NCBI GenBank assembly: GCA_965223905.1
Contig: CBDCXV010000002.1
Coordinates: 480,001-544,000, forward strand
Source: Candidatus Latescibacterota bacterium
Lineage (GTDB): Bacteria > Latescibacterota > UBA2968 > UBA8231
Direction: 5' to 3'
DNA: 64,000 bases
The notes under the pieces: generated by a model
The model's database searches: none
Told to the model about the DNA's origin: nothing
Seen by the model: the letters and a program-made list of their open reading frames with translations, nothing else
Made by a program: the position numbers and the translations under genes
Shown: positions 23,010 to 53,675 of the stretch, piece by piece
Layout: every line of letters starts with the position of its first letter
How positions within the stretch are numbered: the first letter of the stretch is position 1

Positions 23010-24908
<1,899 letters not shown>

Positions 24909-25029: not shown

Positions 25030-25251
25030 ATGGAAGCTACACTCTCTCAGAGAGGGCAGGTGACCATTCCGAAGCCCTGCCGCGACAAGCTCGGGCTCAA
25101 GAAGGGCACGGTCCTGAATTTCGAGGCCAGGGACGGGATCCTCGTGGTGCGCAAGGTTCAACCTGAGGACGTGTTCCGCAAGTGGAGGGGTCGCGGCCGG
25201 CTTCCGGCCGGGCTTGGAGTCGACGAATACCTCGACGAAGTACGGGGATGA
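25030..25251 (+). CDS. AbrB/MazE-type antitoxin
   Basis: 'LSQRGQVTIPK..R.KLGL..G..L.F'; ATGA overlap with the PIN gene. Confidence 0.88.
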   Translation: MEATLSQRGQVTIPKPCRDKLGLKKGTVLNFEARDGILVVRKVQPEDVFRKWRGRGRLPAGLGVDEYLDEVRG

Positions 25252-25661: not shown

Positions 25662-25673
25662 CCCCATCGCCGG

Positions 25674-26502
<829 letters not shown>

Positions 26503-26513
<11 letters not shown>

Positions 26514-31758: not shown

Positions 31759-34769
<3,011 letters not shown>

Positions 34770-34773
<4 letters not shown>

Positions 34774-35498
34774 CCGGAAGCCTGGAAACTTCGGAGATCG
34801 CCTGGGGGGATTCGCGGCTGACCTATGCCATCCGGCGTAGCGCCCGGCGGAAGAAGACCGTGGCAGTGACGGTGGATCCGGCCGGCGGGGTGTTGCTGGT
34901 GGCCCCGGAGCAGATCAGCACCAGCCGACTGGATGCGATGGTCCGGCGGAAGGCACCGTGGATCGTGAAGCGGCTCCGGGGGGTGGAGTCGGGGGATCCT
35001 CCTCCGCCGCGGGAGTTCGTCAGCGGGGAGAGCGTGATGTACCTGGGACGGCACTACCGGCTGAAGGTTGATTCCGGGGGGCCGGGGGAGGCGAAGCTGC
35101 GCGGCGGCTGGCTGCACGTTCCCGCGCCAGCGGGGGAGGGGCAGCGGGATCAGGTGCGAGCGGCGTTGGTCTCGTGGCTGCGGGGGCACGCCGAGGTGCG
35201 GTTGCCGGAACGGGTGGAGATGTGGCGGCCGAAGGTGGGCGTGGAGATGCCCCAGGTGGTGATCTCAGACCAGCAGAAGAGGTGGGGTAGCTGCGACCGC
35301 AGCGGGACCATTCGGCTGAACTGGCGCATCATCCAGGCCCCGATGCGGTTGGTTGACTACGTTGTGGTTCACGAGTTGGTGCATCTGCGGCACCGGGGGC
35401 ACGGCCGGGACTACTGGCAGGCCCTTGGGCGGATTATGCCGGATTATGAGCGCCGGCGGGAGGATCTGCGGCACCGGGGGCTAGGATTCGCGTGGTAG
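34770..35498 (+). CDS. M48/YgjP (DUF45) zinc metallopeptidase-like protein
   Basis: 'RWGSC', 'LNW', 'DYVVVHELVHL..H'; ATGA overlap with hsdR. Confidence 0.9.
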
Positions 35499-35579
35499 CT
35501 ACCGTGTAAGTCCTCCCAGATTTCCTTGGCAAACCCCACTTGCGCACCTCTCTCCCACCCTCCCTTGCGGATGAGGCCT

Positions 35580-36880
35580 CTAACCCATCAGTTCCTCCAT
35601 CATGCGGAATTCTTCCGCAAAACTCCCGCTTTCATCCGCATCGGCCTGCTCCCGAGCCAATTCCATGGCCCTTTCACGATCAACGGACTTCGGAATCAGC
35701 GCCAGAGCATACTTCCGAATATCCACCTCCTCCCGCTCCAGCAGCCGACGAAGGTCGATATAATCCAGCATTACTCCACAGTCCACGAGCCTTTCGATCG
35801 CGTCGCAGGTCTCCCCGACTCCACTATCCCCCTCAACTGCCTCAACAATCGCAGGGAGTACGGATTCCGTTCCCACGGTTCTCACCTTGCCATTCGCACA
35901 GTCGTCCAGATAACCTATTTCGCACTCAACTAGGAATCTGGGGAAGGTAGAGGTCAAGAACCCACTAGCCGTCCCAATAATCGTCTTTAGGCTAGCAACC
36001 GGCTCAATTGAGGCATCGTTCATCGTGACAAGATATGTTGGAATTCGCAACGCACACTGCCGACAGATATCTAGCAGATCCGGATCTCGGAGGGAGGTTC
36101 CGACAAAGATCGCCACATCCACATCCTTGGCAACATTTCGCAATTCTGTAGTCAAGTCAGGATACGGCGGCAAGGTAGTACGCTTTTCTCGCGTTGGAAG
36201 AATCATGGCGCTTCTCATTTTGGGGCCAACATACGATAGGTTATCAACAACCGAAAGGGCAAGATTCCCGTATAGAGGCATGGGGTGCCTTAGCTTGTAC
36301 ACGGCTCCATCGTCGCCCATATACCAGTCTGTTGAACCGTGCACTTTCAACAGTCTCAGCATGCCTTTCTGTGCGACATTCATTCCCCTCCACGTAGCAG
36401 TCTCCATTTCCCCAAACTCATAAAACCCGTCGTCAACCGGAGTCTCAAAACACCTACAGGCAATTTCGATGGCCCTATCGTAATTACTGGTCGCTATACA
36501 CAATTGGTGGTCCCCCATTTTCCTCACGACCACTCCCCAAAGACTTTTGGCGTGTACATCCCTAAGACGTTCACACACATGTTGGACAAACCACTCAGCC
36601 TCCCACCGCATCATCCGACTTGAGTTGAGGAGGTCTTCATCGACGGGGAAACCAAGTTTGCGATGGATGTCTTGCCCTTTCTCCAAACCTTCGACGGTCT
36701 CAATCAGCTCTTCCATGTCGTACTCCGATTGAGACAGCATTTGCTCCAACTTCTCAAGAACTCTTCCGGTCCATTCGAGGTTTGCCAAATGAGCATGGAA
36801 TTCCTCCACCATTCGACGCATTGCGGGAATACCTAGTTCTACCGAAGCACCCGCGCACCGGCAAAAAGCAGTATTTTCAA
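35580..36880 (-). pseudogene. SIR2-family protein with a helical C-terminus; +2 frameshift in the GAGAS motif
   Basis: TTG at 36880 'MKILLFAGA[cg]GASVELGIP'; 'ATSNYD', 'LKVHGS.DW', 'FVGTSLRD'. Confidence 0.85.
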
Positions 36881-38580
36881 CTTATTGTCTCCATCAAATA
36901 CTGCCGCCTAATGGGTCCCAGTTTCCCGGTCTTCTTCGGTGACTTTGACAGTATATTTGCGATCTGTTGGGCATGTTCCTTACCATACTCTTTACAGCCA
37001 ATCCACAGTCCAATGTGGCCTTCGTTTCTACGGCAAATGGTCCGTACGATCTCCTTCCCTCCTTCATGGTCAATGTTAATCCAGATCTCGTCGCCAACCG
37101 GGAGGAGTGCTGCCGCACCCTGTCCTAGCCGGACAAGCTGCACGTTCGGCTTGTGGTCAAATACGGTTGCAACAGCTTCGCGCCCAACGACATCATTGGC
37201 GACGGCTTCAACCTGAACTAGTCTTGGAAGGAGCCCCTGGAAGTGATTCACGAGCAAGTCCCCCGTAGACGCACCTACGAAACTGGTTTCCCGGAGGAAT
37301 TGCGGCTCTCGATCAACACCTTGGACTACAAGGTGACCGCTATTCCTAAGCACCCGGACGGCTTGTTGCGTTACTTGGTTCGCTCTTGCTAGATTTAGGG
37401 GCGCAATATAGAGCTCATCCTTTTCGAGCGCCTCTATATCCCGAATAGATACTTCACTGCTTTGTTGACCTGGCTCCAGGAGACGAAATGCTTTTCTGTG
37501 GCGAAACTCCTCATCCCATAGTCTTGCTACCTTTTCGTATGGGCCAGTGCGGGGGACCGCAAGCCATATGGTTACCCAACGGCGGAGAGACCAACTTCGT
37601 GTTGTCTCATCGCTTAGCACTTAGCGTACGCATTCAATCGCACGCTCAAGTACAGCAGGGTGATAAGATCTCAACACAGGTTCGAGTTCAGCCTGTAAGC
37701 TGTCGCCTACGAATCCCTCTCGATTGAGTTTGGGCCGAAAGTGCTTGGGATCAACATGAATTGCACCTTCTATCGCCCAGAGTTGCTTTATGGCAACGGA
37801 GGCAACGAATACACCGCGATAGAGGATGTCGACATGAGCAGAGCCGTCGAAACTGTCCCAAGAATTGAATAATACGGGTGGACCAACATGAGCAGTTTGT
37901 ATCCAATCTGGCGTCAACACTGAAATAGGCCTTATTTCTCTGCTGATTCCGCCTTGGTCGATTTGTTTTCCTCCAGGGTCCTCCGTTGCCGTTAGTCCCT
38001 CCACGTCGCGAATCCAATGTGGGAATTTTTCCACTATCTGTTCAAAGGCCGACTCTTTGTCCACGAACAATATCAGATCCGTTCCTTGTTCTTTCCTACG
38101 AGGCTCAAGGGAAATCGCTTTGGTCGTTGCGTCCAACATGCCCCGGTTGAACTCCAAGCCCAAGGACTCGTTACCCGGCTTCAGAGTAAAGAGCTGGAAT
38201 TGTTCGCAAACTAGGAAGTAACTCAGGACCCCGATCCCAAACTCACCCACGGCGTTGTATTCGCCCTCCGCGGCTTTCGCTGCGACCCTAGACGCAGAGG
38301 CCCCAATTCGAGAGAAGAGTTCCACCATCTGATCTCTCCCCATGCCATCGCCATTGTCCGAGATAGTTACAGTGCGTGATTGGCGATCAAAGACTACTGA
38401 AATCTGGGGATTGACCGATGGATCTGTGGCTTGCCTACGACCCACCGCGTCAATGGAGTTCAGAATCGCCTCCCGTATTGATGCGTCCACGCTCGAATAG
38501 AAGGTTTCTCCAGTAAAGAGCTCCAGGATCGACTCCTGGTCGATAGTAAACCTTGGCGGCCAATCCGTGGTAGCATTCAT
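36877..38580 (-). pseudogene. Hsp90-like GHKL ATPase protein split by one in-frame TAA (37621-37623)
   Basis: 'IREAILNSIDA', 'DNGDGM', 'GEFGIG', 'GT'; ORFs 37621-38580 and 36877-37620 abut in the same frame. Confidence 0.85.
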
Positions 38581-38719
38581 GTAATGACTCCTGAGGGCAT
38601 TGGCCCCTCTATCGAGTTCGTTAGGCGAAATGTCCGGTAGGCCGTTTTTTCCAGCCGTATGACGCTTGGGGCTTCAGACCGGCTCAGGACCATTCTCCCC
38701 CCTACCTCCACCTGCCAAC

Positions 38720-39330
38720 CCTCACCCATACACCACCTCCACCAACGCCCGCATATACCCGATCGCATACGCCTTCCCATGCAACGCCCCATATACCGGC
38801 CCAAAGGACGGGGTGTGGACTATAAGGTACGGTCCGTTGAATCCGTTGTCCCCGGTAGACCTCCATTTCCGGCCGCAAGTCCACCTCGCCCTCGGCGATG
38901 AAGACCTCGGGGAACCGCCGCAACTGGCCCCCGACGTTGCGGAAGTGTACCCAGGCTATCTGTCTTTGAGGCCATCTTTGCGATGGCGTCGTAGACCTTC
39001 TCCGGTCCCAGCAGCTCGGTCATGCAGCCCTGGCAAAAGAGCATTCAGCTGGTGTCGATCGGGGTGACTTGAAGAAGATTCGGCGGAACTGCACCAGGGA
39101 GGAACAGATCTGCGCCACGCCGGGAAGGGGGCTGGGGCATCGGCGGGTCGTCCGGGTGCAGGGCAATTCGCACGCCCGCTTTCTCGGGCGCGGGGACCGC
39201 AGCTGCCAGGAAGCGCTCCATGCGCTTCCACATCCGGGCCTCGTCCACGGGGGAATCGTGGGGCTCGGGCCGGTTCCAAGGGGCGGTTTTGAAGGTGGCT
39301 GATCCCCTTGGTACATTCCGCGTGAATCCC
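38720..39330 (-). pseudogene. uxuA: Mannonate dehydratase remnant (copy 1)
   Basis: 'AGVRIALHPDDPP', 'FCQG', 'VHFRNV', 'F..EGEVD', 'AYAIGYM' across frameshifts. Confidence 0.75.
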
Positions 39331-39457
39331 CGACTCCAAAGGGACACCTTTCTTACGGGACTGCTCACCTTCGACAGAATGCGTATCTGAGCAGCGGGGC
39401 AGAGGATCCTTCCCTTTGCCCTCCCCACTCTCGTCGTCTTAGGCCAAGCGCGCGCCC

Positions 39458-39992
39458 ATGGACTTCTATGAGGCCGCCGCAGACCTCTACGACCACACCT
39501 TCGGACGGGCCGAGTTGGAGGGCGAGCGCGGTGACGTGGCTTTCTATGTACAGGAGGCTCGGCAGGCCAGGTTTTCGCCGGTCCTGGAGCTGGCCTGCGG
39601 CACCGGGCGGGTCCTGATCCCGATCGCCCATGCCGGGGTGCCGGTGGTGGGCTTGGACAGCTCGCCGGTGATGCTCTCGGCGGCCCGGAAGAAGGTCGCC
39701 CGGCTCCGGGAAGCGACGCGACAGCGCATCGAGCTGGTCGCCCTCGTCATCATTCCCTTCCGCTCTTTCCTGCACCTGATGACCCCGGCCGACCAGCGCC
39801 GGGCCCTGGGCCGGATCCGCGACCACCTGACCGAAGACGGCCGCCTCGTGTTCAACATCTTCGACCCGCGGCTGGACATGATCGCCTCCCATCTCGGGAC
39901 ACCGCGGGCTCGCCGTGGAGGCGCTCTACGGCGGCTTTGACCGCGGGCCCTTCCGCCACGGCGGCGAGCAGGTCTGGGTAGCGCGGAGGGGG
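39458..39992 (+). pseudogene. Internally deleted copy of the SAM methyltransferase at 40943
   Basis: Near-identical start and end, with two internal deletions. Confidence 0.88.
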
Positions 39993-40008
39993 CACTTGGT
40001 TGCTGACT

Positions 40009-40464
40009 TCAAGCCCCAGATGGATAGGGGAAGAATGAGTCCGATACCTTTACCTCGAATGAAAGATGGTTTTCTTGCGGAGAGTAGACCATCTTCCAAT
40101 TGCTCAGAATGTCACGGCCCAGGAGCGAAGGATACTGCATGTACTCTTCCAAGGGTTCCAGGAACAGAATGGGCAACTGGTATACGTAGATCTTGCTGCT
40201 GCCGCCAAAACACAGAATGGCCGGTTCTTCATATGCCCTCGCCTCTCCTCCAATTCCAGTGATCCCTTGTGGATTCTCCAGCGCACCATAATCGACTCCG
40301 ATCCTGTGCCCATCGTTCGGAGCTATCGTAGTGACAGAAGCCCCGGTATCGACCAGAAATGATATATCGCTTGGGGGTACGTTGGGAAATTGGCTCTCGA
40401 TCGAGATAACACTCTCAACATAGGGGCTTTGCGATGTGTCTCCATACCTACCGGAGATCGCCAT
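40009..40464 (-). CDS. Retropepsin-like aspartyl protease
   Basis: 'FLVDTGAS.T' and 'LLGRDIL'. Confidence 0.85.
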   Translation of the reverse strand: MAISGRYGDTSQSPYVESVISIESQFPNVPPSDISFLVDTGASVTTIAPNDGHRIGVDYGALENPQGITGIGGEARAYEEPAILCFGGSSKIYVYQLPILFLEPLEEYMQYPSLLGRDILSNWKMVYSPQENHLSFEVKVSDSFFPYPSGA

Positions 40465-40474
40465 ATTGGCACCA

Positions 40475-40744
40475 TCACAGAATCATGGTACGAGGCTCGG
40501 ACTCGATATACCTGATGATGGCTTGCGCCCGAGAGTACCCTCCTGCATCCAGGGCCTGCAAGACGGACTCGAATGTCGGGCCATGTGCCCGCACCTTTCC
40601 CGAGTGAATCCCGATCCACTCATCCGGGTATTCCTCGATCATGCGAGGATTCTCCGATGACAGCAGGGTCACACTCTCGCGGTAAGCCTCCATTTGCTCG
40701 GCGATCTTGCCAGGATCGCCGATGATTTTCTCAACATCTGCCAT
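40475..40744 (-). CDS. DUF5678-like small protein
   Basis: 'EEYPDEWIGIHSGKV.A.G.....VL'; GGAG RBS; directly upstream of the protease. Confidence 0.65.
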   Translation of the reverse strand: MADVEKIIGDPGKIAEQMEAYRESVTLLSSENPRMIEEYPDEWIGIHSGKVRAHGPTFESVLQALDAGGYSRAQAIIRYIESEPRTMIL

Positions 40745-40942
40745 TTGGTGCTCTCCCTTGGTGCGGGGTCTATGGTTTCTGGTTTTCTTCTATTCCAAAC
40801 GAGCGCCGGCCCGAATGTACGGGTCATGGATGACCGGTCAATTCAGCGCCGGATCACAGCGCAACTCGTCGCTGTCATTGTCGTCCTTTTTGCACTCCCC
40901 ACTCTCGTCGCCTTAGGCCAAGCGGGCTCAGCAGCACCGCCC

Positions 40943-41752
40943 ATGGACTTCTACGAGGCCGCCGCGAACCTCTACGACCACACCCTCGGGCGGGCCGAGC
41001 TGGAGGGCGAGCGCGGCGACGTGGCCTTCTATGTACAGGAGGCCCGGCAGGCCGGGTCGCCGGTCCTGGAGCTGGCCTGCGGCACCGGGCGCGTCCTGAT
41101 CCCGATCGCCCATGCCGGGGTGCCGGTGGTGGGCTTGGACAGCTCGCCGGCGATGCTCGCCACGGCCCGGAAGAAGGTCGCCCGGCTCCGCGAAGCGACG
41201 CGGCAGTGCATCGAGCTGGTCGAGGGGGACATGCGCTCCTTCTCCCTCGACCGGCGCTTCGACCTCGTCATCATCCCCTTCCGGTCGTTCCTGCACCTGA
41301 TGACCCCGGCCGACCAGCGCCGGGCCCTGGGCCGCATCCGCGAGCACCTGACCGACGACGGCCGCCTGGTGTTCAACATCTTCGACCCTCGGCTGGACAT
41401 GATCGCTTCCCATCTCGGACACCGCGGCCACCCCCTGGAGAAAGAGAGCGAGTTCACCCATCCGGAAACGGGGCGGCAGGTGGTCGAATGGGTGAGGCGC
41501 CGCTACGACGCGGCGAACCAGACGATCGACGAGGAGCGGATCCTCGAGGAGCTGGACGGCGGACAGGTCGTTTCCAGGACCCCTGCGACGCTCGCCCTGC
41601 GCTGGGTCTACCGCTACGAGATGGAGCACCTCCTGGAGCTTAGCGGCTTCGCCGTGGAGGCGCTCTACGGCGGCTTCGACCGCGGACCCTTCCACCACGG
41701 CGGCGAGCAGGTCTGGGTAGCGCGGAGGGCGTCAAGCCCACCCTGCCGGTGA
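40943..41752 (+). CDS. Class I SAM-dependent methyltransferase
   Basis: 'VLELACGTGR', 'GLDSS..ML', 'GDMR.F.L..RFDLV'. Confidence 0.9.
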   Translation: MDFYEAAANLYDHTLGRAELEGERGDVAFYVQEARQAGSPVLELACGTGRVLIPIAHAGVPVVGLDSSPAMLATARKKVARLREATRQCIELVEGDMRSFSLDRRFDLVIIPFRSFLHLMTPADQRRALGRIREHLTDDGRLVFNIFDPRLDMIASHLGHRGHPLEKESEFTHPETGRQVVEWVRRRYDAANQTIDEERILEELDGGQVVSRTPATLALRWVYRYEMEHLLELSGFAVEALYGGFDRGPFHHGGEQVWVARRASSPPCR

Positions 41753-41784
41753 ACTGACCTCTCCCATCGCATCAAGGTCGGCTA

Positions 41785-41990
41785 AGGGGCCGCCTATTTC
41801 GGCTTGGCGGCCGTGGAGTCGATGGTGCAGATCTACCTGTTCAACTTCAACAAGTCGTCTTCGGGTTGCCGGCGCTCTACACCGGCCTGGCGCTGGCCCT
41901 GGCCATTGTCTGGGATGCCGTCAGGGACCCCATCATTGGGGGAATCTCCGACTGTTCCCCGCTGGGCTGCCGCCACCGGGGCCCCCGCCT
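41785..41990 (+). pseudogene. GPH/MFS sugar transporter N-terminal fragment
   Basis: 'GLALALAIVWDAV.DPIIG.ISD'. Confidence 0.55.
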
Positions 41991-42031
41991 GCTGGCCGGT
42001 TTCTTCCGTTCTGGACTGGGCGCCCGAAGGA

Positions 42032-42225
42032 CTATCGCTGCCCAACCTCTGGAACCGATAACCTCCGACATATCCGGCGGGCAAGGTGGTTGGCTATTTC
42101 ACCATGGCGAGGAACGGTCTCGACGGCACCAGTATTGGGGTTGCACCACAGCGAATGAGAGCGCCTTCCCGTTTGAGGTAACAACCGTGCCTCCGAAGGT
42201 GGCGAAGCAAACTGCCCCGTTTCAC
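42032..42225 (-). pseudogene. hicA: HicA toxin with a 1-nt deletion
   Basis: 'VKRGSLLRHLRRHGC.LKREG / SHSLWCNPNTG....VPRH.EI...LAR.ICR.L'; GTGA overlap with hicB. Confidence 0.85.
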
Positions 42226-42437
42226 GGGACAGTGATCATTTCTCGGATGGCGTCAGCCGGCACACCGCGCAACCCCTCCTCCCGACGGTCCTCAAGGATG
42301 AGCGCTACGGCCTCAGCCAGATTCTCGCGTGCTTCCTCCTTGGTTTTGCCCTGACCGTTTGCCCCGGGGATCTCGGGGCAATAGGCGATATGCCATTCCC
42401 CATCCTGCTCGATAATCGCCGTAAACTCGTTTTTCAT
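42222..42437 (-). CDS. hicB: HicB antitoxin
   Basis: 'FTAIIEQDG.W.IAYCPEIPGANGQGKT.EEA..NL.EA'. Confidence 0.9.
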   Translation of the reverse strand: MKNEFTAIIEQDGEWHIAYCPEIPGANGQGKTKEEARENLAEAVALILEDRREEGLRGVPADAIREMITVP

Positions 42438-42503
42438 TGTGTGTTTCCACCCTCTTTGTCTTGCGTATTGCCTTCGGATGACAGTAGGCTCACCCGCTAA
42501 ATC

Positions 42504-43006
42504 TTAGGAATAATCCTGAGCCCACTCGTCCTTAATACTTAGCGTGCTGCACATTGCAATCCGCATTGCGTTGTTCATCACACGACAACGTTCAAGATTT
42601 CTCTCGATTTCAACCAACTCGGTGAGCAATCCCATACGCCCTTCGGTCGACTCAAGCCCGGAATTACGCTCTAGAAAGAAGCGATGGACCAGATAGTTCC
42701 GCTGATCTAGGGCGGTGGAAAACCCTTCCTCAACAGAATCTTCCTTGATCGTTACACGTTGTCGCACTTTGTTGAGAAGTTGCCCCATGGTCATCTTTTT
42801 GCCAAGGTCATCGATACTTAATGAATCTGAGGCGATCTGTTGTACATTTTCAAGAATCTCGTGAGGCTTTGTTCAAATAGTTGAGAATGCTGGACAGCAG
42901 AGCCAAAGCACGCGAAGACTGCATTGAGTTGCCCTTCTTCAGTCTCCAGTATCTTGAGTGACTCGGTGGTGTATCCGCGTTGCATATTATCGATTCCCTT
43001 TTTCAT
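42504..43006 (-). pseudogene. HEPN-like (RxxxxH) protein, frameshifted near 42838
   Basis: 'G.AV..SQLFEQ.L', 'TMGQL', 'RNYLVH'. Confidence 0.6.
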
Positions 43007-43131
43007 CTTTTAGCATCCTCCAACTCTATTTTGCCACTCTTGGATCCTCGGTGCGTGATCAGGAGCAAGATTGGTCGGTGGGGTTCCAAGGGCATGGCAT
43101 GGACGTAGGCGCCTGACAGCTGCCCAAGGGT

Positions 43132-43772
43132 TCAGGTTTCTGGGGAATTTGGGCAGGAGAGTCCGCAATGTGACCCGAGAATCGAACTGACGACATTGTG
43201 CAGATCTTGAAAGTGGGTGAAATACTCAAAGGTGGCGTTTTGAAGGACGTGGTTGGCGAAATCAGCCTTCCGGTTTTTTGGGAACTCACGTCCCAGCAAC
43301 CTGCCGTCGTTGTCCACCTTGCTGATCGAGATTGGCTCCAAGATCCTCTCGTCATAGGTATTCTCGATGCCGTTGCGGGCGATCACGTTGTCTTGTCGCC
43401 TCCTGAACGCGAACGGTGTGACCTTGGCAGCACCGGGCAGTTCCTTGCGCAAGTTATCCGCCTGGTCCGCGGCGTCACCATCCCACACGATTACAAAGTG
43501 CGTGTTCGTGTTCATCCTTCCGAGCAGCCGGCCGTATGCGAGTAACTGGCTGGCGCTGCTGTGTTGAGAAAGATCTTCGAAAACATGGACATTCTGTGGA
43601 AAACTCAACTGCACCCATTTCTTGAGGTGCCGGGCGTTATGTCCCTCAGTCAGTATAGTCACCTTCGCTTCGTCGTACGCTGCGATCCTTAGTCCCAGGT
43701 CCACCGTTGCGAGGCCTTCTGAAAGTTCGTTGATGGCTTCCGACTTGGTGGTGCGAGCGACGTTGAGGCGGG
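43132..43772 (-). pseudogene. TOPRIM domain (OLD-like) 3' fragment
   Basis: 'ILTEG', 'VWDGD', 'GIEN', 'K..FA'; the 5' part is replaced by the M48 duplicate. Confidence 0.6.
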
Positions 43773-44313
43773 GTGGATCGTGAAGCGGCTCCGGGGGGTG
43801 GAGTCGGGGGATCCTCCTCCGCCGCGGGAGTTTGTCAGCGGCGAGAGCGTGATGTACCTGGGGCGTCACTACCGACTGAAGGTTGATTCCAGCGGGACTG
43901 GGGAGGCGAAGCTGCGCGGCGGCTGGCTGGACGTGCCGGCGCCGGCGGGGGAGGGGCAGCGGGATCATGTGCGAGCGGCTCTAGTGGGGTGGCTGCGGCG
44001 GCACGCCGCGGAGCGGCTGCCGGAACGGGTGGAGGCGTGGCGGTCTAAGGCCGGGGTGGCGATGCCTCGGGTGGTTATCGCGGACCAGCAGAAGCGGTGG
44101 GGGAGCTGCGACCGCAGCGGGACCATTCGGCTGAACTGGCGGATCATCCAGGCCCCGATGCGTCTGGTGGACTACGTGGTCGTCCACGAGCTGGTACACC
44201 TGCGCCATCGGGGCCACGACCGCGACTACTGGCAGGCGCTCGGGCGGATCATGCCGGACTATGAGCGCCGCCGCGAGGATCTGCGGCAACGGGGGGTGGG
44301 GTTGGCGTGGTAG
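43773..44313 (+). pseudogene. Duplicated 3' three-quarters of the M48/YgjP gene (copy of 34958-35498)
   Basis: Colinear high identity with many substitutions; no N-terminus. Confidence 0.92.
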
Positions 44314-44578
44314 CGTCGTCGAGGGTGAGGGCCCGGTAGTTGGCGGCTAGGTCTGAGCCGCCATAACCATGCGAGGTAAGGTACGAGCTCAAGCCTCGCG
44401 GAAGCCCGAGGGTGCGGTCCGTGCCTCCCCTCTCTCTGTAGCAGGTGGGGGCGGTCGATCTGCGGCAGAGAGTCACAGTGGGTATCCTAGGCTCCGGTGA
44501 AGCCGGGGCGCCCGGTGGTCCTTGCTGGTTAGGGCTGGATGTCGGGAGCTACAGTACGGGGCTATTGGCCTTAGAGGA

Positions 44579-44977
44579 TTACGGCCGTGGCATCCATGAT
44601 GCCGCATTAGCAAGCGCCTGCAAATGCTCATTCACTTTATCGGGATCATTCATATCCGCGCAGGGCAACCGAACATCAGCATGGTAGGGATTGCAGCATG
44701 TGGGGGATGCAACTACGCATCGCCCGTCTTGAGATGCGATTTCCGCTTTCACCACAGCCCATCCCCGGAAGTTCCTGCCTCGCATCCTGTCCCTCTTGTC
44801 AGCGATTGAGGCAACCTCGTCAATCCACGAGTCGCACAAGCGGTCGAACGATACGCCGCCTTCGTCTAACCTAAAATCCCTATGGCGAAAAATCCCCCTC
44901 CTTGCCTTTCTCGCGCTCGAGTCGGAAGCGATACTCCGGCCCAATTTGCAATCCCCGCTGATGTCCTTTGTCACCAT
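44579..44977 (-). CDS. Small ADP-ribosyltransferase/RES-fold-like protein (cassette B gene 3)
   Basis: 'LGRS ... DF ... VSFDR ... NPYHADV'; ATGGTGA 7-nt overlap with the upstream gene; the fold call is inference. Confidence 0.55.
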   Translation of the reverse strand: MVTKDISGDCKLGRSIASDSSARKARRGIFRHRDFRLDEGGVSFDRLCDSWIDEVASIADKRDRMRGRNFRGWAVVKAEIASQDGRCVVASPTCCNPYHADVRLPCADMNDPDKVNEHLQALANAASWMPRP

Positions 44978-45804
44978 GTCCATCCATCGGTCATTTCATC
45001 CAGTCTCAACAAAGCCATGCGAAGAAAACCATCGGGCAGTTGGCCCGACTCCTCCGGCGTATAGGATCTGCTACGTTCGGGAATCCCTGGGACATCAACA
45101 AGGCAAAGTGCCCCTCCGTTTGACCTGCATAACAGAATCACTGAACTGCCTCTTCTGTTCGGAAGGCTAATGGCAATCTCTCGATCATGAGTAGTGTATA
45201 TGTCATATTGCCTGGGGAGGATGTCGAACATCTCTCTGAGCAGGCGATCGGCGTTTGTCTTTGCCAAGTCCGAAGGAAGCTCGAAACCTTCTTCTAATGC
45301 GTCCTTGTCGACTTCGTTCAATTCATCCAAGAGTTCCTGGAATCGGCTATCTGTCTCGGAGGGCCTGGAAGACTCCACAAAAGCCCAAATAGGGACAAGC
45401 GGCTTGTTCAAATCGCCATAGACTGTATGTCTGCCTCTACGAGAATTGCAACCTGCGAATGTGCTGTAAGCAGCGCGCCCTACTTCGGGCGTAGAGGAAA
45501 CGTCAAGATAGCCAGAGGAATCTTTCCAAAAAGCAAGCGAGAACTGCTCTCTGCCCTGATCCCAGGCGCTGGTGTGGGGATTATTTCTGAAAAACTGCTC
45601 TTGCCCCTGTCTCCATTTCTCCAATATGGAAAGGTTCTCCAGGAGGACAGCATCGGTCGTTCCAGTTTCCTGATTCTCGTCCCCCTGTTCCCAAGTCGTC
45701 CAGCCAGCAGTGTCAGGATCAGCCATAGGGTTCCGTGGTGCACGGAACAATGCTCGATCCCGTGTTGGTGTCCGGGGCTTAGAAGCGGCTTGAGTCATTT
45801 CCAT
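44971..45804 (-). CDS. Hypothetical antitoxin-like protein (cassette B gene 2)
   Basis: Polar N-terminus and core 'LDEL...A.EEG...PS..A..NA..LL.....DIY...D.EIAI'. Confidence 0.55.
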   Translation of the reverse strand: MEMTQAASKPRTPTRDRALFRAPRNPMADPDTAGWTTWEQGDENQETGTTDAVLLENLSILEKWRQGQEQFFRNNPHTSAWDQGREQFSLAFWKDSSGYLDVSSTPEVGRAAYSTFAGCNSRRGRHTVYGDLNKPLVPIWAFVESSRPSETDSRFQELLDELNEVDKDALEEGFELPSDLAKTNADRLLREMFDILPRQYDIYTTHDREIAISLPNRRGSSVILLCRSNGGALCLVDVPGIPERSRSYTPEESGQLPDGFLRMALLRLDEMTDGWTW

Positions 45805-46451
45805 TGGTCAAAACAATCGATGAAGTCAAAAGTATTCTTCCACACTTCAGCAAATCGACTATTCAAATCCAAGTGGTCGCGGATCTCTTCTGTGTCGAGA
45901 TGGACATTCGTGCTAATGAAGATTTTTGGAGTTTCAAGGTCTTGGAGGCGAGGCTCGATGGTAACGATGAACTTTCTATTTCTATCGTCCCCTGTATAGT
46001 ACATCTTGCATCCACCACCAGAAAGCTCCCAGTCCTTGAAAGACTCTCTCTTAGGAAAGATCCGCGAGGCGATATAGAGGCCGGCCGGCGAGCGTACCTC
46101 ATTAACTTGGGCAGGGGTATACACAACCTCCATGTTGAATCCAATCGCCGTAAGTGGCTGACTTTCGAGGTCGTCGGTATAGGACATTGCCTTTGTGGCG
46201 ACATCTACTAATTGGGCAAGGTCTTCGTCCGAAGATAGATAGTCTCTTTGAACAATCGACCGCTCGCTGGATAAATCCAGCGAGATCCTATGCTTGTTGA
46301 TGATATGATTTCTTGAGCCGCCGGTCACAATGGTGGTCAATTCATCATCAATGGAAAACTGAAACTGCCTTTGTTGCTCCGGTGTATTGAGTAGGTCTAT
46401 CCCCAAAAGCACCATGTTTACCCTTATCACTTCAAATGGAGAACTGTCCAT
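45795..46451 (-). CDS. Hypothetical protein, remote TIGR04255-like (cassette B gene 1)
   Basis: GAAGGA RBS before ATG 46451; 'NMVLL', 'AIGFN', 'VTIEP', 'TNVH'. Confidence 0.55.
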   Translation of the reverse strand: MDSSPFEVIRVNMVLLGIDLLNTPEQQRQFQFSIDDELTTIVTGGSRNHIINKHRISLDLSSERSIVQRDYLSSDEDLAQLVDVATKAMSYTDDLESQPLTAIGFNMEVVYTPAQVNEVRSPAGLYIASRIFPKRESFKDWELSGGGCKMYYTGDDRNRKFIVTIEPRLQDLETPKIFISTNVHLDTEEIRDHLDLNSRFAEVWKNTFDFIDCFDQWK

Positions 46452-46874
46452 GATTCCTTCTCCCCTCAATGCTCTGCGTGCGTGGTGGGCCCCTGGCTTG
46501 GGCTCCTCATGGCAGAATCCGGCGCCGGCCCCACTTGCACCAGTGTTCATCCGTAGCCCTGCTATGCCCGCGTGGAACCTATGAGTGCCGATGACGGCCT
46601 GTCAACTCTCAGCCTTGCTCGTTTCGTGCAAGGCTAGTCCTCTCGGGCTCCGTCCTCCCCTCGCCAGGGCCCGCGCTGCGGCCATGCCACAAAGACTTCC
46701 AGAGGTATTTGCCTAAGCAACTCTGATACACATGGGACCACCATGCAAGACTTGGGACATGCCCTTCGCCCAACGAATCCTGGTCCCGCACTCCCCGAAC
46801 CGTCACCGCTGATGAGCTGTACCCCTTCCTCGCCAGTCCTTTGCGTCCCTCTCACCCTCACCCGAAAACCACCA

Positions 46875-47150
46875 CCACCACCAGCTCCCGGATATATCCG
46901 ATCGCAAAAGCCTTCCAGGCAGGGGGTCGAACCCCGCCCAAAGGAAGGTGTTTGGTCCATTATGTACGGCCCGTTGAACCCGTTGGCCCGGAGACCTCAA
47001 TCGCCCACTGCATGTCCACCTCGCCCTCGTCGAAGAAGATTTGGGGGAACTGCTCCAGGGTGGAGCAGATCTGGGCAACTCCGGCCAGGGGCTCGGGGAA
47101 TCGGCGTGTCGTCGGGGTGCAGAGCTATCCGCACTCCCGCTTTCTGGCCG
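46875..47150 (-). pseudogene. uxuA: Mannonate dehydratase remnant (copy 2)
   Basis: 'KAGVRIALHPDD', 'FFDEGEVD', 'NGFNGPY', 'AFAIGYI'. Confidence 0.7.
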
Positions 47151-47196
47151 CGACGGGTGGTGATGAGGTCCGACGACGGTCTATGGTAGAACAATC

Positions 47197-47391
47197 TCAA
47201 ATGGCATCTGCCGGCACACCGCGCAACCCGTCCTCCCGGCGGTCCTCAAGGATGAGCGCTACGGCCTCAGCCAGATTCTCGCGTGCTTCCTCCTTGGTTT
47301 TGCCCTGACCGTTTGCCCCGGGGATCTCGGGGCAGTAGGCGATATGCCATTCCCCGTCCTGCTCGATAATCGCCGTAAACTCGTTTTTCAT
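47197..47391 (-). CDS. hicB: HicB antitoxin, second copy, 3'-truncated and without hicA
   Basis: Nearly identical to 42222-42437, including the upstream RBS. Confidence 0.85.
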   Translation of the reverse strand: MKNEFTAIIEQDGEWHIAYCPEIPGANGQGKTKEEARENLAEAVALILEDRREDGLRGVPADAI

Positions 47392-47409
47392 TGTGTGTTT
47401 CCACCCTCT

Positions 47410-47943
47410 TTAGTTTTGCCTATTGCCCTCGGACGGGGTAGGGGTTGGGCTGTTCTGGCGCAATGCGACTTTCACAGCCCCCCAACTGCGTGCCTGCACT
47501 CCCGTCGATATCCCTTCCACCTGTACATGGAAGTACGCCGGCTCGGATTCCACCGGCCCGTCATCGGTATTCTGCACCGTCGTGACCGCCCACAGAGTGT
47601 GCGTGTCGCTGTCCAGGGTAGCGACCACGACCCTGACGACAGGCTCCATAGGGCCGATGATGCCCCACGACACGAGGGCAGTCTTGGGAGAATCCAGCTC
47701 TACCAGGTTGCCCTGTTCATCGAGGCCCACAGTGACCGCTATCTCCCGGTAAATCCGGTATCCGTCCGCTCCCTCCACCGCATTCCAGGTCACGAGGATG
47801 AAGCCGCCCTGGTCGCCCTGGTTCTCCGGCGGGTTGTATGGCACTGCCACCACCGAGTCGGGCGGCGCAGGCAGGGCCAGACCCGCGTTCACGGACAGCA
47901 GCAGGGCAAGTATCGCCAGCGTCACTTTCTTCGCATGTCTCAT
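47410..47943 (-). CDS. Secreted Fn3-like protein with a C-terminal 'SWG.VK' tail
   Basis: Signal peptide 'MRHAKKVTLAILALLL..AGLA'; 'VTWNAV.GADGYRIYR'; 'TGVQARSWGAVK'. Confidence 0.7.
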   Translation of the reverse strand: MRHAKKVTLAILALLLSVNAGLALPAPPDSVVAVPYNPPENQGDQGGFILVTWNAVEGADGYRIYREIAVTVGLDEQGNLVELDSPKTALVSWGIIGPMEPVVRVVVATLDSDTHTLWAVTTVQNTDDGPVESEPAYFHVQVEGISTGVQARSWGAVKVALRQNSPTPTPSEGNRQN

Positions 47944-47982
47944 GGGTAGCCTCCTGACGTAAGGGATCTGTATTGAAGAAAC

Positions 47983-48020
47983 AGTTGACAATGGGCCTGT
48001 CAACTCTATTTTATAGAGAA
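47983..48020. promoter_or_regulatory. Divergent promoter region with inverted repeats
   Basis: AGTTGACA-N7-TGTCAACT (TTGACA on both strands) and CTCTA-N5-TAGAG. Confidence 0.55.
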
Positions 48021-48116
48021 CTCTGCACGAGTTGGGAAAACTCGGCAGCCTTACCAAATGGAAAGGGCCGCCGCCCCCTCGGCTCCCGGGACGGCAGCCG
48101 CGAAAGGAGACTCCCA

Positions 48117-48704
48117 ATGGAACCCAACGTGACGCAGAAGCTCGAAGAGGACGTGTCCTTCGTCCGCCAGGCGGTGGAGCAGCGGGATGAGGGACAGTAC
48201 CGCTACCTGGGGATCACCGTCCTGTGGGCGGTGATCATCGCCGCCGGGTACGCTCTCAACGATTTCGCCATGGAGTACGCCCCCGTGTACTGGATGGTCG
48301 CCCCGGCCGCAGGCTTCCTGGTCAGCCTCGGCCTGGGCACCCGGCAGGAGAGGAAGCGGGGACTCCGCAGGCCCGGTCTGGGCGCCAGGAATGCCCTGCA
48401 CTGGGGCTGCATCTTTTTCGGCGGAGTGGCGGTGATGTCCATCGCTTTCTCCCACCGGTTCGACGGCTGGGTAATCGGTCAGCTCTTCGCCCTTCTCTCC
48501 GGCGCCGTGCTCTTCCTGGGCGGTCTGCACCTCGACCGGCGCACCCTCTGGCCGGGGGTCCTGCTCATCTGCGGATCGGCCGCGGTCGACCACATCCCGG
48601 CCTGGCCTTGGACTATCGTCGGACTGGCCACGGCGGCCGCCCTGGTGGCCAGCGCCCTGTGGATGAAACCGAGGGATGATGAAGAAGCCGTCGCAACCGG
48701 CTGA
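48117..48704 (+). CDS. Six-TM membrane protein
   Basis: AAGGAG RBS; hydrophobic helices; coupled to the winged-helix gene. Confidence 0.75.
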   Translation: MEPNVTQKLEEDVSFVRQAVEQRDEGQYRYLGITVLWAVIIAAGYALNDFAMEYAPVYWMVAPAAGFLVSLGLGTRQERKRGLRRPGLGARNALHWGCIFFGGVAVMSIAFSHRFDGWVIGQLFALLSGAVLFLGGLHLDRRTLWPGVLLICGSAAVDHIPAWPWTIVGLATAAALVASALWMKPRDDEEAVATG

Positions 48705-49011
48705 GGTCACCTCCGGGGGCCTGGTTCGGCTGGACAAGCTGCTGGAACACCGCAGCCGCCTCGGCGCCTGCGTGCTGCTGGCCGACGTCGACGCCATGAC
48801 TTTCACCAGCCTGAAGCAGCTCCTCCAGGAGACAGACGGCAACCTGGGGGCGCACCTGCGCAAGCTGGAGGACGCCGGCTACCTCGGCGTGACCAAGCGC
48901 TTCGAGAACCGCAGGCCGGTGACCTGGTACCGCCTCACCAAAAAAGGCGCCAAGGCCCTGCAGACTCACCTCGAGGCCCTGCAGACGGTGATCGCCGGCG
49001 CCAGGCTCTGA
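48676..49011 (+). CDS. Winged-helix transcriptional regulator (HTH_34)
   Basis: 'RL....LL....F..LK..L..TDGNL..HLRKLE.AGY....K.F..RRP.T.Y.LT..G'. Confidence 0.88.
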   Translation: MMKKPSQPAEVTSGGLVRLDKLLEHRSRLGACVLLADVDAMTFTSLKQLLQETDGNLGAHLRKLEDAGYLGVTKRFENRRPVTWYRLTKKGAKALQTHLEALQTVIAGARL

Positions 49012-49012
49012 G

Positions 49013-51229
49013 ATGCGCGCGCGAGTGCTGGCTCTCCTTTTCGGCGCCTGTTTCTCCTTGCCGGCCCTGGCGCAGAGCAGGGCTTTGGTCCAGGGACAGG
49101 TCGTCGACGAATCACAGCAGCCGATGGCCTTCGTCAACGTGCAGATCGTCGACACCACCGACGGCGCCATAACGGGCCGCGACGGCCGTTTCGCCTTTTC
49201 CACCCGGCACCTCGGACGGCGCGGCCTGGCCGCCACCTTCATCGGCTTCGAACCGGCCCGGCAGACCCTGCACCTGGCCGCGGGCGATACCGCGACGGTT
49301 CGCCTGGTGCTGCGGCAAGCCCTCATCGAGCTCGGCGAAACCGTCGTCACGGCCAGCACCTACACCACCGGGGAGGACGAGGCCGTCACCCTTTCCCCGC
49401 TCGATGTGGTCACGACGCCGGGGGCTTCCGCCGACATCTTCCGCGCCTTCAAGACCTTCCCCGGCGTGGCCACCGTGGATGACGGCGCCGGTCTTTTCGT
49501 CCGCGGCGGCGACGTGAGCGAGACCGTCGTTCTGCTCGACCAGGCCACGGTGGTCCATCCCTACCGGTACGAATCCCCTACCGGCGGGGTGTTCGGCACG
49601 ATCCCTCCGTTCATGGTCAAGGGCACGGCCTTTTCCACGGGTGGATTCTCCGCCCGCTACGGCAACGCGCTTTCCGCGGTGCTGGCGATGGAGAGCCTGG
49701 ACATGCCGGTGCAACGGAGCTATACGCTCGGTCTGGGCCTTGCCGCCGGCTCCGTGGGACTCGACCTGCCCCTTGTCGAGGACAAGCTCGGCCTGCGCTT
49801 CACGGGGAATCTCAGCCTTACCGATCTCATGTTCCGCGTCAACGGCCACCGCGACGGATTCGTCGTCACTCCGCGGGGGCGCGACGGCAACCTCAACCTG
49901 GTCTACCAGTACTCGCCGACCGGACGCCTCAAGCTCTTCAGCTTCAACGGGGGGGACGAGATCGGCGTGCGCGTGGCCGAGCCTTCGTTCGACGGCCATT
50001 ACCGGGGCCGCAGCGACAACTCACTGCACAATCTCCAGTGGACGGATGTATGGGCGGACTGGTCCATCCGCACCAGCGCCTCGCTCAACCGGCACTCCGC
50101 CCGGCGGCAACTGGGCAACCTCGACCTGACCCCCAGCGACCTGACCGGCAAGATTCGCACGGACTGGGAACGCTTCCTCGGTGCATTCGGCATCCTGCGC
50201 CTCGGGACCGAAGTGGAGCACGCCGGCAACCGCTTCGTGGGCAGCATCCCCCAGGGGGACATCCTCGACCCGGAGGCAGAGGTGTTCGAGCTCGACGCTT
50301 CCTACAGCGCGCGGCGTACCGGCGCTTGGTTCGAGGTCGATTTCAAACCAGGGCGCCGCATCGTCGCCAATGCCGGTATGCGCGCCGACCGCCACAGCCT
50401 GGGCCGCGGTCTGGTCGTGGACCCGCGCCTGTCGGCGCGATACCAGTTCTCGCAAGACACGAACGCCCGGCTCGCCTGGGGCATCTACCACCAGTTCCCC
50501 GCCCCGTTCGCATACAACCCCACCAGCGGCAACCCGAATCTGGGACCCCAGCGCGCCCAACACTGGATCGGCGGCCTGCACCACGAACGCGGGCGGTTCC
50601 TGGTGCGGCTGGAGGGGTACTACAAACCCTACCGCAATCTGGTGCTGGATGACCCCGTCCTGAACCTTGCAAATACAGGTAGCGGGAGGGCCTCCGGTGT
50701 CGACCTCTTCTGCAAGTACGGCGCCTTTCTCGACACGCGCTTCAGCGGCTGGATGGCCTACAGTCTGCTGCGCTCGCGCCGGATGCAGGTGCGCCACCTG
50801 GGGTTTGAGACGCTGCGCGAAGAAGCTCCTTCACCGTTCGATATCACCCACAATCTGACTTGGGTCGCGAAAATGCGGATCGTCCGCACCTTGAGCGGCG
50901 GCCTGACCCTGAGATACGCCAGCGGCCGTCCCATCACCCCGGTCGTCGATGCCGTCCCCGTGGCGGGCAGAGGCTACTACCTGCCGGTGGAAGGACCGGT
51001 CGGCTCGGAACGGCTGCCCTCCTTTCAACAGATGGATGGGCAGTTGAGCTATCTGCTGTTCTTCGGCTCCGGGCACCGGGCGGTCTTCTACTTCGCTGTC
51101 AACAACCTGCTCAACCGCGCCAACGTGCTCGACTACGATTACAGCATCGACTATACCCGGCGCCGGCCGCGCATCTCTCTCTTTCGCCGGTCCGTTTACT
51201 TCGGCACCACCGTCTCCCTGAACTACTGA
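49013..51229 (+). CDS. TonB-dependent receptor with an N-terminal carboxypeptidase-regulatory-like domain
   Basis: 'G.VVD...QP..FVNV', plug 'LFVRGG', 'GGFSARYG', 'NNLLNR.N'; aromatic C-terminus. Confidence 0.9.
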   Translation: MRARVLALLFGACFSLPALAQSRALVQGQVVDESQQPMAFVNVQIVDTTDGAITGRDGRFAFSTRHLGRRGLAATFIGFEPARQTLHLAAGDTATVRLVLRQALIELGETVVTASTYTTGEDEAVTLSPLDVVTTPGASADIFRAFKTFPGVATVDDGAGLFVRGGDVSETVVLLDQATVVHPYRYESPTGGVFGTIPPFMVKGTAFSTGGFSARYGNALSAVLAMESLDMPVQRSYTLGLGLAAGSVGLDLPLVEDKLGLRFTGNLSLTDLMFRVNGHRDGFVVTPRGRDGNLNLVYQYSPTGRLKLFSFNGGDEIGVRVAEPSFDGHYRGRSDNSLHNLQWTDVWADWSIRTSASLNRHSARRQLGNLDLTPSDLTGKIRTDWERFLGAFGILRLGTEVEHAGNRFVGSIPQGDILDPEAEVFELDASYSARRTGAWFEVDFKPGRRIVANAGMRADRHSLGRGLVVDPRLSARYQFSQDTNARLAWGIYHQFPAPFAYNPTSGNPNLGPQRAQHWIGGLHHERGRFLVRLEGYYKPYRNLVLDDPVLNLANTGSGRASGVDLFCKYGAFLDTRFSGWMAYSLLRSRRMQVRHLGFETLREEAPSPFDITHNLTWVAKMRIVRTLSGGLTLRYASGRPITPVVDAVPVAGRGYYLPVEGPVGSERLPSFQQMDGQLSYLLFFGSGHRAVFYFAVNNLLNRANVLDYDYSIDYTRRRPRISLFRRSVYFGTTVSLNY

Positions 51230-51256
51230 TCTTCATCTTCACCAAAGAGGCCAACT

Positions 51257-52890: not shown

Positions 52891-52900
52891 TGGAATGGTC

Positions 52901-53545: not shown

Positions 53546-53675
53546 CGGTTTTCTCCGTGTCGGAAGAGGGATCTCACGGGTGTGCGGCGGCAGGCACCAG
53601 CGCAGAATTGCGGTGTCAGGCGTTGCGCCGTGCTGTTCGTGAATGGTAGGATATTGGCTGCACACAAAACAGCGC

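Follow-up and report, generated by a model that had tools for sequence, protein, structure and literature searches.

Two tandem units downstream of a type I restriction operon

The DNA analysed here, referred to as the window, is a stretch of 64,000 nucleotides (C2:480001-544000) from a Candidatus Latescibacterota genome of 7.92 Mb in 11 contigs (completeness 93.6%, contamination 5.1%), in which a type I restriction operon is followed by two tandem units, each consisting of the 3' end of the metallopeptidase gene ygjP and a cargo of its own. The left anchor of the locus is hsdR (31759..34773, plus strand; Pfam SWI2_SNF2 2e-81, HSDR_N and T1RH-like_C), with 88-93% nucleotide identity to seven relatives. 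The full-length YgjP-like metallopeptidase gene (34770..35498, plus strand; PF01863 1e-59, profile positions 1-206) is coupled to hsdR, as its start overlaps the hsdR stop at 34770-34773, and its own stop codon is the left boundary of a variable slot. The original prediction, made from the sequence before any database search, had labelled this gene M48; no NCBIfam model matched it, and its Pfam match is PF01863.

That the order ygjP 3' end, minus-strand cargo, uxuA remnant and hicB occurs twice had been part of that prediction and is borne out by self-blastn, a repeat search of the window and Pfam, the predicted coordinates being correct to within a few bases. The prediction did not include the composite make-up of unit 1, the in-frame stop of its ATPase gene and the nature of 42480-43772 as the remnant of another cassette. 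The two copies of the ygjP 3' end (34958..35499 and 43773..44314, both plus strand) are 88.0% identical over 542 nucleotides (nt; E 0), and the second, with PF01863 matched at 6e-49 over profile positions 40-206 (open reading frame, ORF, 43780-44313), is a 5'-truncated gene with the last 177 codons. On the minus strand, the uxuA remnant of unit 1 (38718..39428; Pfam UxuA 4e-9 for the fragment 39045-39428) recurs in unit 2 in a shorter form with an internal deletion (46854..47152), 38718-38918 being 75.5% identical to 46854-47053 and 39071-39192 82% identical to 47032-47152, so that identity to 38718-39192 ranges from 75 to 82%. A hicA-like and hicB-like pair, copy a, closes unit 1 (42032..42437, minus strand), and a hicB-like copy b without hicA closes unit 2 (47195..47433, minus strand), with 95.0% identity over 239 nt between 42241-42478 and 47195-47433 (E 7e-104). 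Thus the flanking copies do differ as predicted, at 88%, 95% and 75-82% identity. The hic assignments stay below the Pfam cut-off of 27 bits, HicA_toxin scoring 20.7 bits (4e-4) and the HicB_lk_antitox matches of the ORFs 42222-42437 and 47197-47391, both on the minus strand, scoring 22.9 and 21.7 bits (1e-4 and 2e-4).

Copy b is contiguous with the right flank, and 47195-48172 is collinear with genome G020 (91%), where a pair 92.5% identical to copy a also comes before this flank. The right anchor proper (47465..52000, plus strand) consists of conserved ORFs and a TonB-dependent receptor (TonB_dep_Rec 9e-19), and is 96% identical to G002 and 85% to G004, both homologies beginning exactly at 47465. 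The GC content of both cargo blocks is 49-56%, and that of hsdR and ygjP 67-70%. No integrase or recombinase domain was matched by Pfam among the window ORFs scanned (outside the repeat region those of ~100 amino acids, aa, and above), and to this extent the predicted lack of an integrase in the window holds; the only transposases in this set belong to two insertion sequences (IS), 4631-5530 and 7076-7900, far upstream.

The junction between the units

Between hicB copy a and the truncated ygjP lies a cassette remnant (42480..43772, minus strand) with 86% nucleotide identity to G020 (L052 10479-11837), a single-contig genome of another genus. In G020, the counterpart of 42480-43766 is located directly upstream of hsdM, is transcribed divergently from it and comprises an intact 164-aa gene and an intact 627-aa gene, the latter with AAA_15/AAA_21 domains and matches to the PADLOC models ATPase-Toprim, AriA, PtuA and Old, of which ATPase-Toprim_I-B (2e-20) covers the ATPase part only. 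In the window, a frameshift divides the 164-aa gene (42504-43006) into the pieces 42818-43006 and 42504-42794; an additional T follows position 42837 in other strains. Of the ATPase-Toprim-like gene, just the C-terminal ~207 aa are retained (43132-43770). This C-terminus has no Pfam match even at E 10 and no meaningful match in a PDB sequence search, and the Toprim lead for it comes from an Atlas cluster in which 14-16% of the members carry OLD-like_TOPRIM.

The ATPase-Toprim homology ends at 43770-43772, exactly where the truncated ygjP begins on the opposite strand, with ~6 nt assignable to neither side in the junction alignment and no shared repeat. The junction 43772/43773 is consequently a 5'-truncated ATPase-Toprim-like gene on the minus strand joined to a 5'-truncated ygjP on the plus strand and lies in no shared flank, which speaks against the predicted stacking of the units simply via the conserved flanks of the slot. 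The head-to-head double truncation is what the gene order of G020 (cassette, hsdM, hsdS, ..., hsdR, ygjP) yields when a single deletion is subtracted. At the hicB/cassette and hicB/flank joins no att-like repeat was evident.

Other assemblies contain the ATPase gene in longer forms of 618 aa (96.7% identical, the alignment to the window ORF beginning precisely at its residue 67) and 655 aa, and in a 258-aa form, 99% identical, which runs 46 residues beyond the breakpoint, while a truncated gene call of 190 aa, one residue different, is found on three other contigs. Judged by contigs of equal size, full-length ATPase forms may be co-resident with cargo B, the cargo of unit 2 (74,845 with its gene B1; 488,803 with its gene B2), and the truncated form may be co-resident with B2 (84,511). 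The two ygjP 3' copies are 88% identical to each other, as far apart as either is from the same-genus orthologue (89.6% and 90.2%), which singles out neither as the native copy. A 242-aa protein of another assembly (P0370), considered as the full-length form of the second ygjP copy, turned out to be a third allele, ~90% identical to both copies.

The slot behind ygjP in relatives

Orthologues of ygjP (81-91% aa identity) are present in nine of the 75 other genomes of the family, in five of 18 genera, which makes the restriction operon itself accessory. Nucleotide homology with the window spans hsdR to ygjP and ends at the ygjP stop codon (35497-35501) in all nine, and the ten slots of these relatives and the two of the window all differ in content. 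A hypervariable slot downstream of the type I restriction-modification operon, as proposed originally, is therefore found throughout (10/10 relatives' slots differing from one another and from the window), and the catalogue of slot genes shows variable, not invariant, cargo. Equally, the suggestion that other cargo of this slot would be candidate defence systems gains support from PADLOC, which recognises systems in four of the ten slots, namely Menshen, Dsr1, a GmrSD-type enzyme and a bSEFIR fragment.

In detail, the slot of G002 contains a ParA-like gene split by an IS and unknown genes; that of G001 a DNA methyltransferase, a 960-aa kinase/ORC-CDC6-like protein and one further protein; that of G004 DUF7689 and two unknown genes; those of G019 and G012 an unknown protein of 423 aa and 484 aa respectively; that of G013, where the contig ends, a trypsin-like protease; that of G161 an unknown 262-aa protein and Dsr1 in two ORFs; and that of G165 the GmrSD-type enzyme (PADLOC 5e-131). 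G020 has two slots, the first with a 395-aa protein, the bSEFIR fragment and IS copies, which has nothing in common with any fetched locus except an IS, and the second with a complete Menshen NsnABC (PADLOC 1e-113, 1e-102 and 2e-109). The Dsr1 homologue of G161 (L049 13026-16713) consists of ORFs of 238 aa and 1025 aa which jointly span the PADLOC profile, and may reflect either a frameshift in a defence gene or an artefact of ORF calling. The cargo proteins of the window had no blastp match among the ORFs of seven relatives, and the cargo had no blastn match in G161 and G165.

The surroundings of the slot vary as well. The slot of G002 and G004 borders on the right anchor (from 47465 on). In G020 this anchor comes after hicAB, and it is ~2 Mb away from the operon in G001, G012, G019, G161 and G165; the island is thus found at different chromosomal sites in different relatives. 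The gene uxuA follows the slot in G019, G012, G161 and G165, in three of these four at full length, and the remnant of unit 1 is 84-85% identical to the 3' end of this full or partial gene, that of unit 2 79-90% identical to uxuA of G019 and G012. The position of uxuA beside the slot in relatives marks the two remnants of the window as scars of another chromosomal setting that travelled with the cargo. Between genomes, identity is 82-90% over the final 540 bp of ygjP and 87-95% over the preceding 1.27 kb, a greater divergence of the gene's end that is expected if exchange breakpoints lie inside ygjP.

A degraded remnant of the island is found in G001 ~15 kb from the homologue of the TonB flank (L066, G001:C3:3339000-3358999, reverse-complemented 1138-4481), where the hsdM 3' end, a PIN gene and the start of the second hsdM copy (window 24621-25751, 96%) are joined directly to a methyltransferase (40943-41837, 91%). 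Inserted in it is a 675-bp segment homologous to window 52900-53573, with 41758-41837 on both its sides. The location of this ~650-bp segment varies between genomes, as it is inside the methyltransferase region in G001 and between a homologue of the Xre antitoxin (window 20590-20942) and the 47470 flank in G019 (L067); the segment may represent a small element that moves or is prone to rearrangement.

A second stack in another genus

G020 carries a tandem stack of its own. At 7 kb downstream of its hsdR-ygjP, the final 1.1 kb of hsdR recur together with ygjP, 86-90% identical, and each copy has separate cargo. The minus-strand ORF that abuts the truncated hsdR aligns to residues 170-397 of a 399-aa G020 paralogue; lacking ~169 N-terminal residues, it is 5'-truncated at the junction like the ATPase gene of the window. 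The stacks of the window and of G020 are independent and share this head-to-head type of truncation scar. The duplicated segment measures 540 bp in the window and 1.8 kb in G020, and this difference in extent argues against a site-specific mechanism.

Metagenomic contigs across the locus

Six metagenome runs from three studies contain the stretch, and four of them were examined as assembled short Logan contigs. Run X1 covers all 30 bins with 0 differences from the window and is for this reason probably the source sample and not independent; its depth is 8.7 over cargo A, the cargo of unit 1, 14.7 over cargo B and 19 over the flank. Runs X3, X5 and X6, from the two further studies, cover 38670-43525 and cargo B at similar depth (17.8 vs 21.5, 13.2 vs 18.5 and 12.6-16.3 vs 12.2 respectively) with essentially no cargo A (35568-38669). 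Contigs of X3 and X6 start at 42449 and carry hicB(a)-type bases into the cassette, by which the adjacency of hicB(a) and cassette is seen outside the source sample.

A joint 40780->38723, matching the arrangement of G019, is present in contigs of X1 and X3, for which reason strains without cargo A probably have the aspartyl-protease block of unit 1 (see below) beside the uxuA remnant. Further contig skips (38767->39333, 39206->39905 and 41793->41977) were observed; together with this joint they indicate that unit 1 is rearranged differently in co-occurring strains.

Origin of the second unit

We consider it likely that unit 2 is the remnant of a second whole restriction island from which hsdM-S-R has been deleted, since the cassette that precedes it belongs upstream of hsdM in G020 and its ATPase gene is cut where the truncated ygjP begins. 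The type I restriction operon (hsdM...hsdR-ygjP) and its downstream region would then form an integrase-less defence island with a cargo slot right after the ygjP stop codon, swapped between lineages together with the end of ygjP. Island 1 would extend from hsdM through hicB(a) and include cargo A and an older layer marked by a methyltransferase duplication and the aspartyl-protease block. Behind it, a second, diverged island, beginning with the upstream ATPase-Toprim cassette and continuing with hsdM-S-R, ygjP, cargo B, the uxuA remnant and hicB, would have been placed in tandem, joined to the first at 42478/42480, where hicB(a) meets the cassette. Subsequently, a deletion with one end inside the divergent ATPase-Toprim gene and the other at codon ~65 in the second ygjP would have eliminated the redundant restriction genes while sparing cargo B, the net outcome being accretion of defence cargo. 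The divergence of the repeats (88%, 95% and 75-82%) is at least that between species of the genus, which favours import of the second island over duplication in place. We infer that the tandem arose by homologous recombination with a relative's copy, circular or linear: one homologous crossover with the circularised island of a relative would create tandem and hicB/cassette join in one step, and homology-facilitated illegitimate recombination may be an alternative route to the tandem.

Several points weigh against this reconstruction. An intact ancestor, with cassette, hsdMSR, ygjP and cargo B on one molecule, was not seen, and the co-residence of full-length ATPase forms and cargo B rests only on the equal contig sizes of 74,845 and 488,803. 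In a cluster look-up, the 177-aa protein of the truncated ygjP was found on the contig of the window alone. The join of hicB(a) and cassette shows no homology that would explain how the tandem was formed. Among the metagenomic contigs listed, none bridges 43525-44241 or spans the whole stretch, the pieces ending at 43525 and restarting at 44241-44293, so that the junction at 43773 rests on the deposited assembly and on indirect evidence; and the depths in X1 show a strain mixture and, taken alone, would be compatible with a chimera.

An origin closer to the original prediction is that only slot alleles, from the ygjP 3' end to hicB, were stacked through conserved flanks, and that there never was a second restriction island. 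Both units are indeed bounded by the same two repeats, and relatives keep the flanks around variable cargo, but such recombination would join hicB directly to flank or ygjP sequence, whereas the 1.3 kb found between hicB(a) and the truncated ygjP belongs upstream of hsdM in G020 and ends in a truncated gene; this origin is thus improbable.

Just as poorly placed is a one-step import by homology-facilitated illegitimate recombination, in which linear DNA of a relative (...ygjP-cargo A...hicAB-cassette fragment) was anchored by homology in hsdR/ygjP and its other end joined inside the resident ygjP, with no deletion as a separate event. The resulting topology of intact gene, new DNA and 5'-truncated resident copy fits the window, the junction has at most a few ambiguous bases, and the same topology recurs at hsdM (24069-24900 vs 25675-26505). 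The donor, however, would need hicB beside the cassette, which itself implies tandem or circular islands, and the orientation of the cassette, divergent to the operon fragment as in G020, is left without explanation. Moreover, the X3, X5 and X6 strains have cassette and cargo B without cargo A, so the region from cassette to truncated ygjP is independent of the arrival of cargo A.

A merger by the assembler of two co-occurring strains with different slot alleles would suit the mixed sample with its 5.1% contamination, the unequal depths of cargo A and B in X1 and the unbridged gap, but is very improbable given that no repeat at 43772/43773 could have misled the assembler, that the junction is the product of one deletion in a real gene order, that the 190-aa truncated gene call recurs on three other contigs, that three other runs contain both cassette and cargo B at comparable depth and that single-contig G020 has the same kind of stack.

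Extending the reading of unit 2 as the remnant of a whole island, the type I restriction islands of this family might, as a tentative generalisation, be self-stacking collectors of cargo: a whole diverged island would enter by homologous recombination, possibly as a circle with hicB and the upstream cassette as its ends, and come to lie in tandem, after which the redundant or conflicting restriction core would be lost under selection and the downstream cargo kept. Repeated rounds could build multi-system islands without a recombinase, and the two cargo cassettes described below, a GHKL-ATPase and SIR2 pair and a module of a RelB-related antitoxin and an ADP-ribosyltransferase (ART)-fold toxin, would be two undescribed systems.

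Cargo A, a GHKL-type ATPase and a SIR2-like protein

The first cargo had been described from sequence as an Hsp90-type ATPase with SIR2, and Pfam agrees with matches to HATPase_c_3 and SIR2_2. The GHKL/HSP90-like ATPase gene (36877..38580, minus strand; HATPase_c_3 4e-10 for the ORF 37621-38580) also matches the NCBIfam HSP90 family (3e-21, under the cut-off) and no PADLOC model. Its frame (37621-38580 and 36877-37620) is interrupted by an in-frame TAA at 37621-37623, codon 320. Queried as a read-through, it retrieved proteins most of which, among the best 120 listed matches, are ~566 aa long with ~99-100% coverage (best 86% identity), and the interrupted position is occupied by E or D in all 20 homologues aligned. 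An X1 contig over 35444-37777 has 0 differences. The system is probably dead in this strain.

The second gene encodes a SIR2-like protein of 413 aa (35580..36821, minus strand; SIR2_2 1e-7, PADLOC SIR2 models down to 3e-12). In seven of eight loci, the ATPase homologue has a SIR2 homologue immediately 3' of it; the eighth is too short to tell. These loci stem from Gamma- and Alphaproteobacteria, Nitrospirales and Acidobacteria; within the phylum, the ATPase has only distant, HtpG-sized matches (26-36% identity) in eight of 167 other genomes. By analogy with SIR2-HerA and DSR, we propose cargo A to be an ATPase sensor that controls an NAD+-consuming effector. A literature search, which took in passages of PMC13069673, returned no description of a SIR2 and GHKL/HATPase pair as a defence system.

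Cargo B, a three-gene block

Cargo B consists of three overlapping ORFs (44579..46550, minus strand) without Pfam, PADLOC or NCBIfam match: B1 (45795-46451, 218 aa from M34), B2 (44971-45804) and B3 (44579-44983), all on the minus strand. The C-terminal ~120 aa of B2 are common to 89 other proteins, some with an N-terminal RelB domain or DUF7662, and a B3 homologue follows directly 3' of the B2-like gene in eight of ten metagenome loci, two of which (L062, L063) look like the same sequence. Residues R16, R48, H101 and D103 of B3 are invariant.

The structural model of B3 (predicted local distance difference test, pLDDT, 90) had no Foldseek match at E <= 1e-3. In an exhaustive structural alignment, Tpt1-type and Tse2 chains came top (Z 7.3 and 7.2), and judged by their titles ~30 of the 50 rows are ADP-ribosyltransferases or NAD-using proteins, including DarT, ParT, RES and MbcT. 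Cargo B may accordingly be modelled as a toxin-antitoxin-like module with an antitoxin-like B2, a candidate ART-fold toxin-like B3 and B1 in addition. It counts against this assignment that the best Z of B3 is 7.3, since Z < 8 may reflect a common arrangement only; membership of B3 in the DarT, RES or ParT families is likewise not indicated by Pfam, even at E 10, nor by PADLOC or NCBIfam.

B1 had appeared to be an orphan in a word-indexed search that gave only the self match, which was overturned by an exhaustive search with 220 representatives of ~223 aa; its model offers a TBP-like fold as a weak lead. A hidden Markov model of the B1 family found no member in any fetched locus, including those beside B2-B3 relatives, so that B1 does not seem to be a regular partner of B2-B3.

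The composite interior of unit 1

Unit 1 is itself composite. Between the uxuA remnant and the hic pair, a truncated methyltransferase copy (39415..39990, plus strand; Methyltransf_12/25) duplicates, with 84-94% identity, 40889-41729 of a class I S-adenosylmethionine-dependent methyltransferase gene (40694..41752, plus strand; Methyltransf_25 7e-18), which is 86-90% identical to G019 and G165, where it lies ~12 kb beyond uxuA. Between the two copies is the gene for a retropepsin-like aspartyl protease (40009..40464, minus strand; gag-asp_proteas 2e-7). A homologue of 40445-40780 adjoins the uxuA 3' end in G019, and the protease gene together with this segment may be the cargo of a third, older unit.

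Comparison with known systems

The closest known arrangements are defence hotspots without an integrase, such as E. coli hotspot #36, which is the enterobacterial immigration control region, and the core defence hotspots of P. aeruginosa; passages of PMC12707154 and PMC10121019 on them describe a type I restriction locus between conserved anchors, with strain-variable content, extra defence systems and no evident mobiliser. How many hotspots are mobilised "could not be readily determined", as the paper on the E. coli hotspots puts it for their mode of mobilisation. Tandem stacking is not described in section 60 of PMC12707154 or in the Results passages of PMC10121019, the supplements of which might list similar loci. 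Like these hotspots, the window shows conserved anchors with sharp breaks of homology (the ygjP stop on the left in 9/9 relatives; on the right, position 47465 for G002 and G004 and hicB for G020), variable content and no recombinase found. Unlike in these hotspots, the exchange point lies inside the operon's own last gene, at the ygjP 3' end, the island occupies different chromosomal sites in relatives, and alleles are stacked in tandem with deletion scars.

Islands with integrases which insert at tRNA or tmRNA genes or other gene 3' ends undergo tandem accretion, each leaving an intact target, the new DNA and a displaced 3' fragment, and form arrays. The window resembles them in having an intact ygjP, new DNA and then a 3' fragment of ygjP, but differs in that no integrase was found, in that the repeats, 540 bp at 88% in the window and 1.8 kb at 86-90% in G020, are of differing extents, and in that its junction cuts two genes and not an att site.

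As to the cargo, SIR2 effectors deplete NAD+ according to published abstracts. Like SIR2-HerA, DSR1/2 and Thoeris ThsA, cargo A includes a SIR2 protein, here together with an ATPase in a two-gene cassette that is conserved and of patchy distribution, but this partner is a 566-aa GHKL/HSP90-like protein (HATPase_c_3), there is no match to a HerA, TIR or DSR model, and the ATPase gene is a pseudogene here. Cargo B has in common with DarTG, ParST and Xre-RES/MbcTA the conserved overlapping pair B2-B3 with the antitoxin-like gene first, and with ART-fold toxin-antitoxin systems the relatives of B2 with a RelB DNA-binding domain and the alignment of the B3 model with Tpt1, Tse2, DarT, ParT, RES and MbcT. 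It differs from DarTG, ParST and RES in that B3 has no sequence membership and middling Z, in the unique 150-aa N-terminus of B2 and in the extra gene B1.

As new features, compared with these systems, the locus has an exchange point within ygjP, a tandem stack from which the second restriction core was apparently deleted, a pattern seen twice independently, and two uncharacterised cargo cassettes. For the question of how defence islands gather systems without integrase or transposase, the locus offers a sequence-level trace of one route, which would be the stacking of homologous islands in tandem followed by reductive deletion. Since the slot carries Menshen, Dsr1 and GmrSD in relatives, its unannotated cargo is reasonable material for the discovery of defence systems, with cassette B, the GHKL-SIR2 pair, DUF7689 and the two unknown genes of G004 and the 423-aa (G019) and 484-aa (G012) proteins as candidates.

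Further duplications and neighbouring genes

The pattern of intact gene, insert and 5'-truncated copy is seen again in the hsdM region (22872-26513), where a PIN-domain gene (25182-25661) separates the full hsdM (22872-24908) from an hsdM 3' copy fused to hsdS, the last 830 bp of hsdM being duplicated (24069-24900 vs 25675-26505, 94.7%). G004 and G020 have a single hsdM with hsdS directly after. More internal duplications (28996-29204/29711-29919, 94%, and 30049-30232/31381-31802, 83-88%) with small toxin-antitoxin-type genes lie between hsdS and hsdR, which suggests the same layering inside the operon.

The segment 20067-20942, at the island's left side, encodes a RES toxin (2e-27) paired with an antitoxin of the Xre/MbcA/ParS type (8e-11), and a homologue of this antitoxin is also present at the G019 site without the island. 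Further upstream lies another SIR2_2 gene (7789-9015, minus strand, 1e-13), with low-GC3 ORFs after it that have no Pfam match. It adjoins the IS at 7076-7900 (DDE_5), which is 94% identical to the IS that splits the ParA-like cargo gene of G002; the segment 7789-11514 may be another defence patch.

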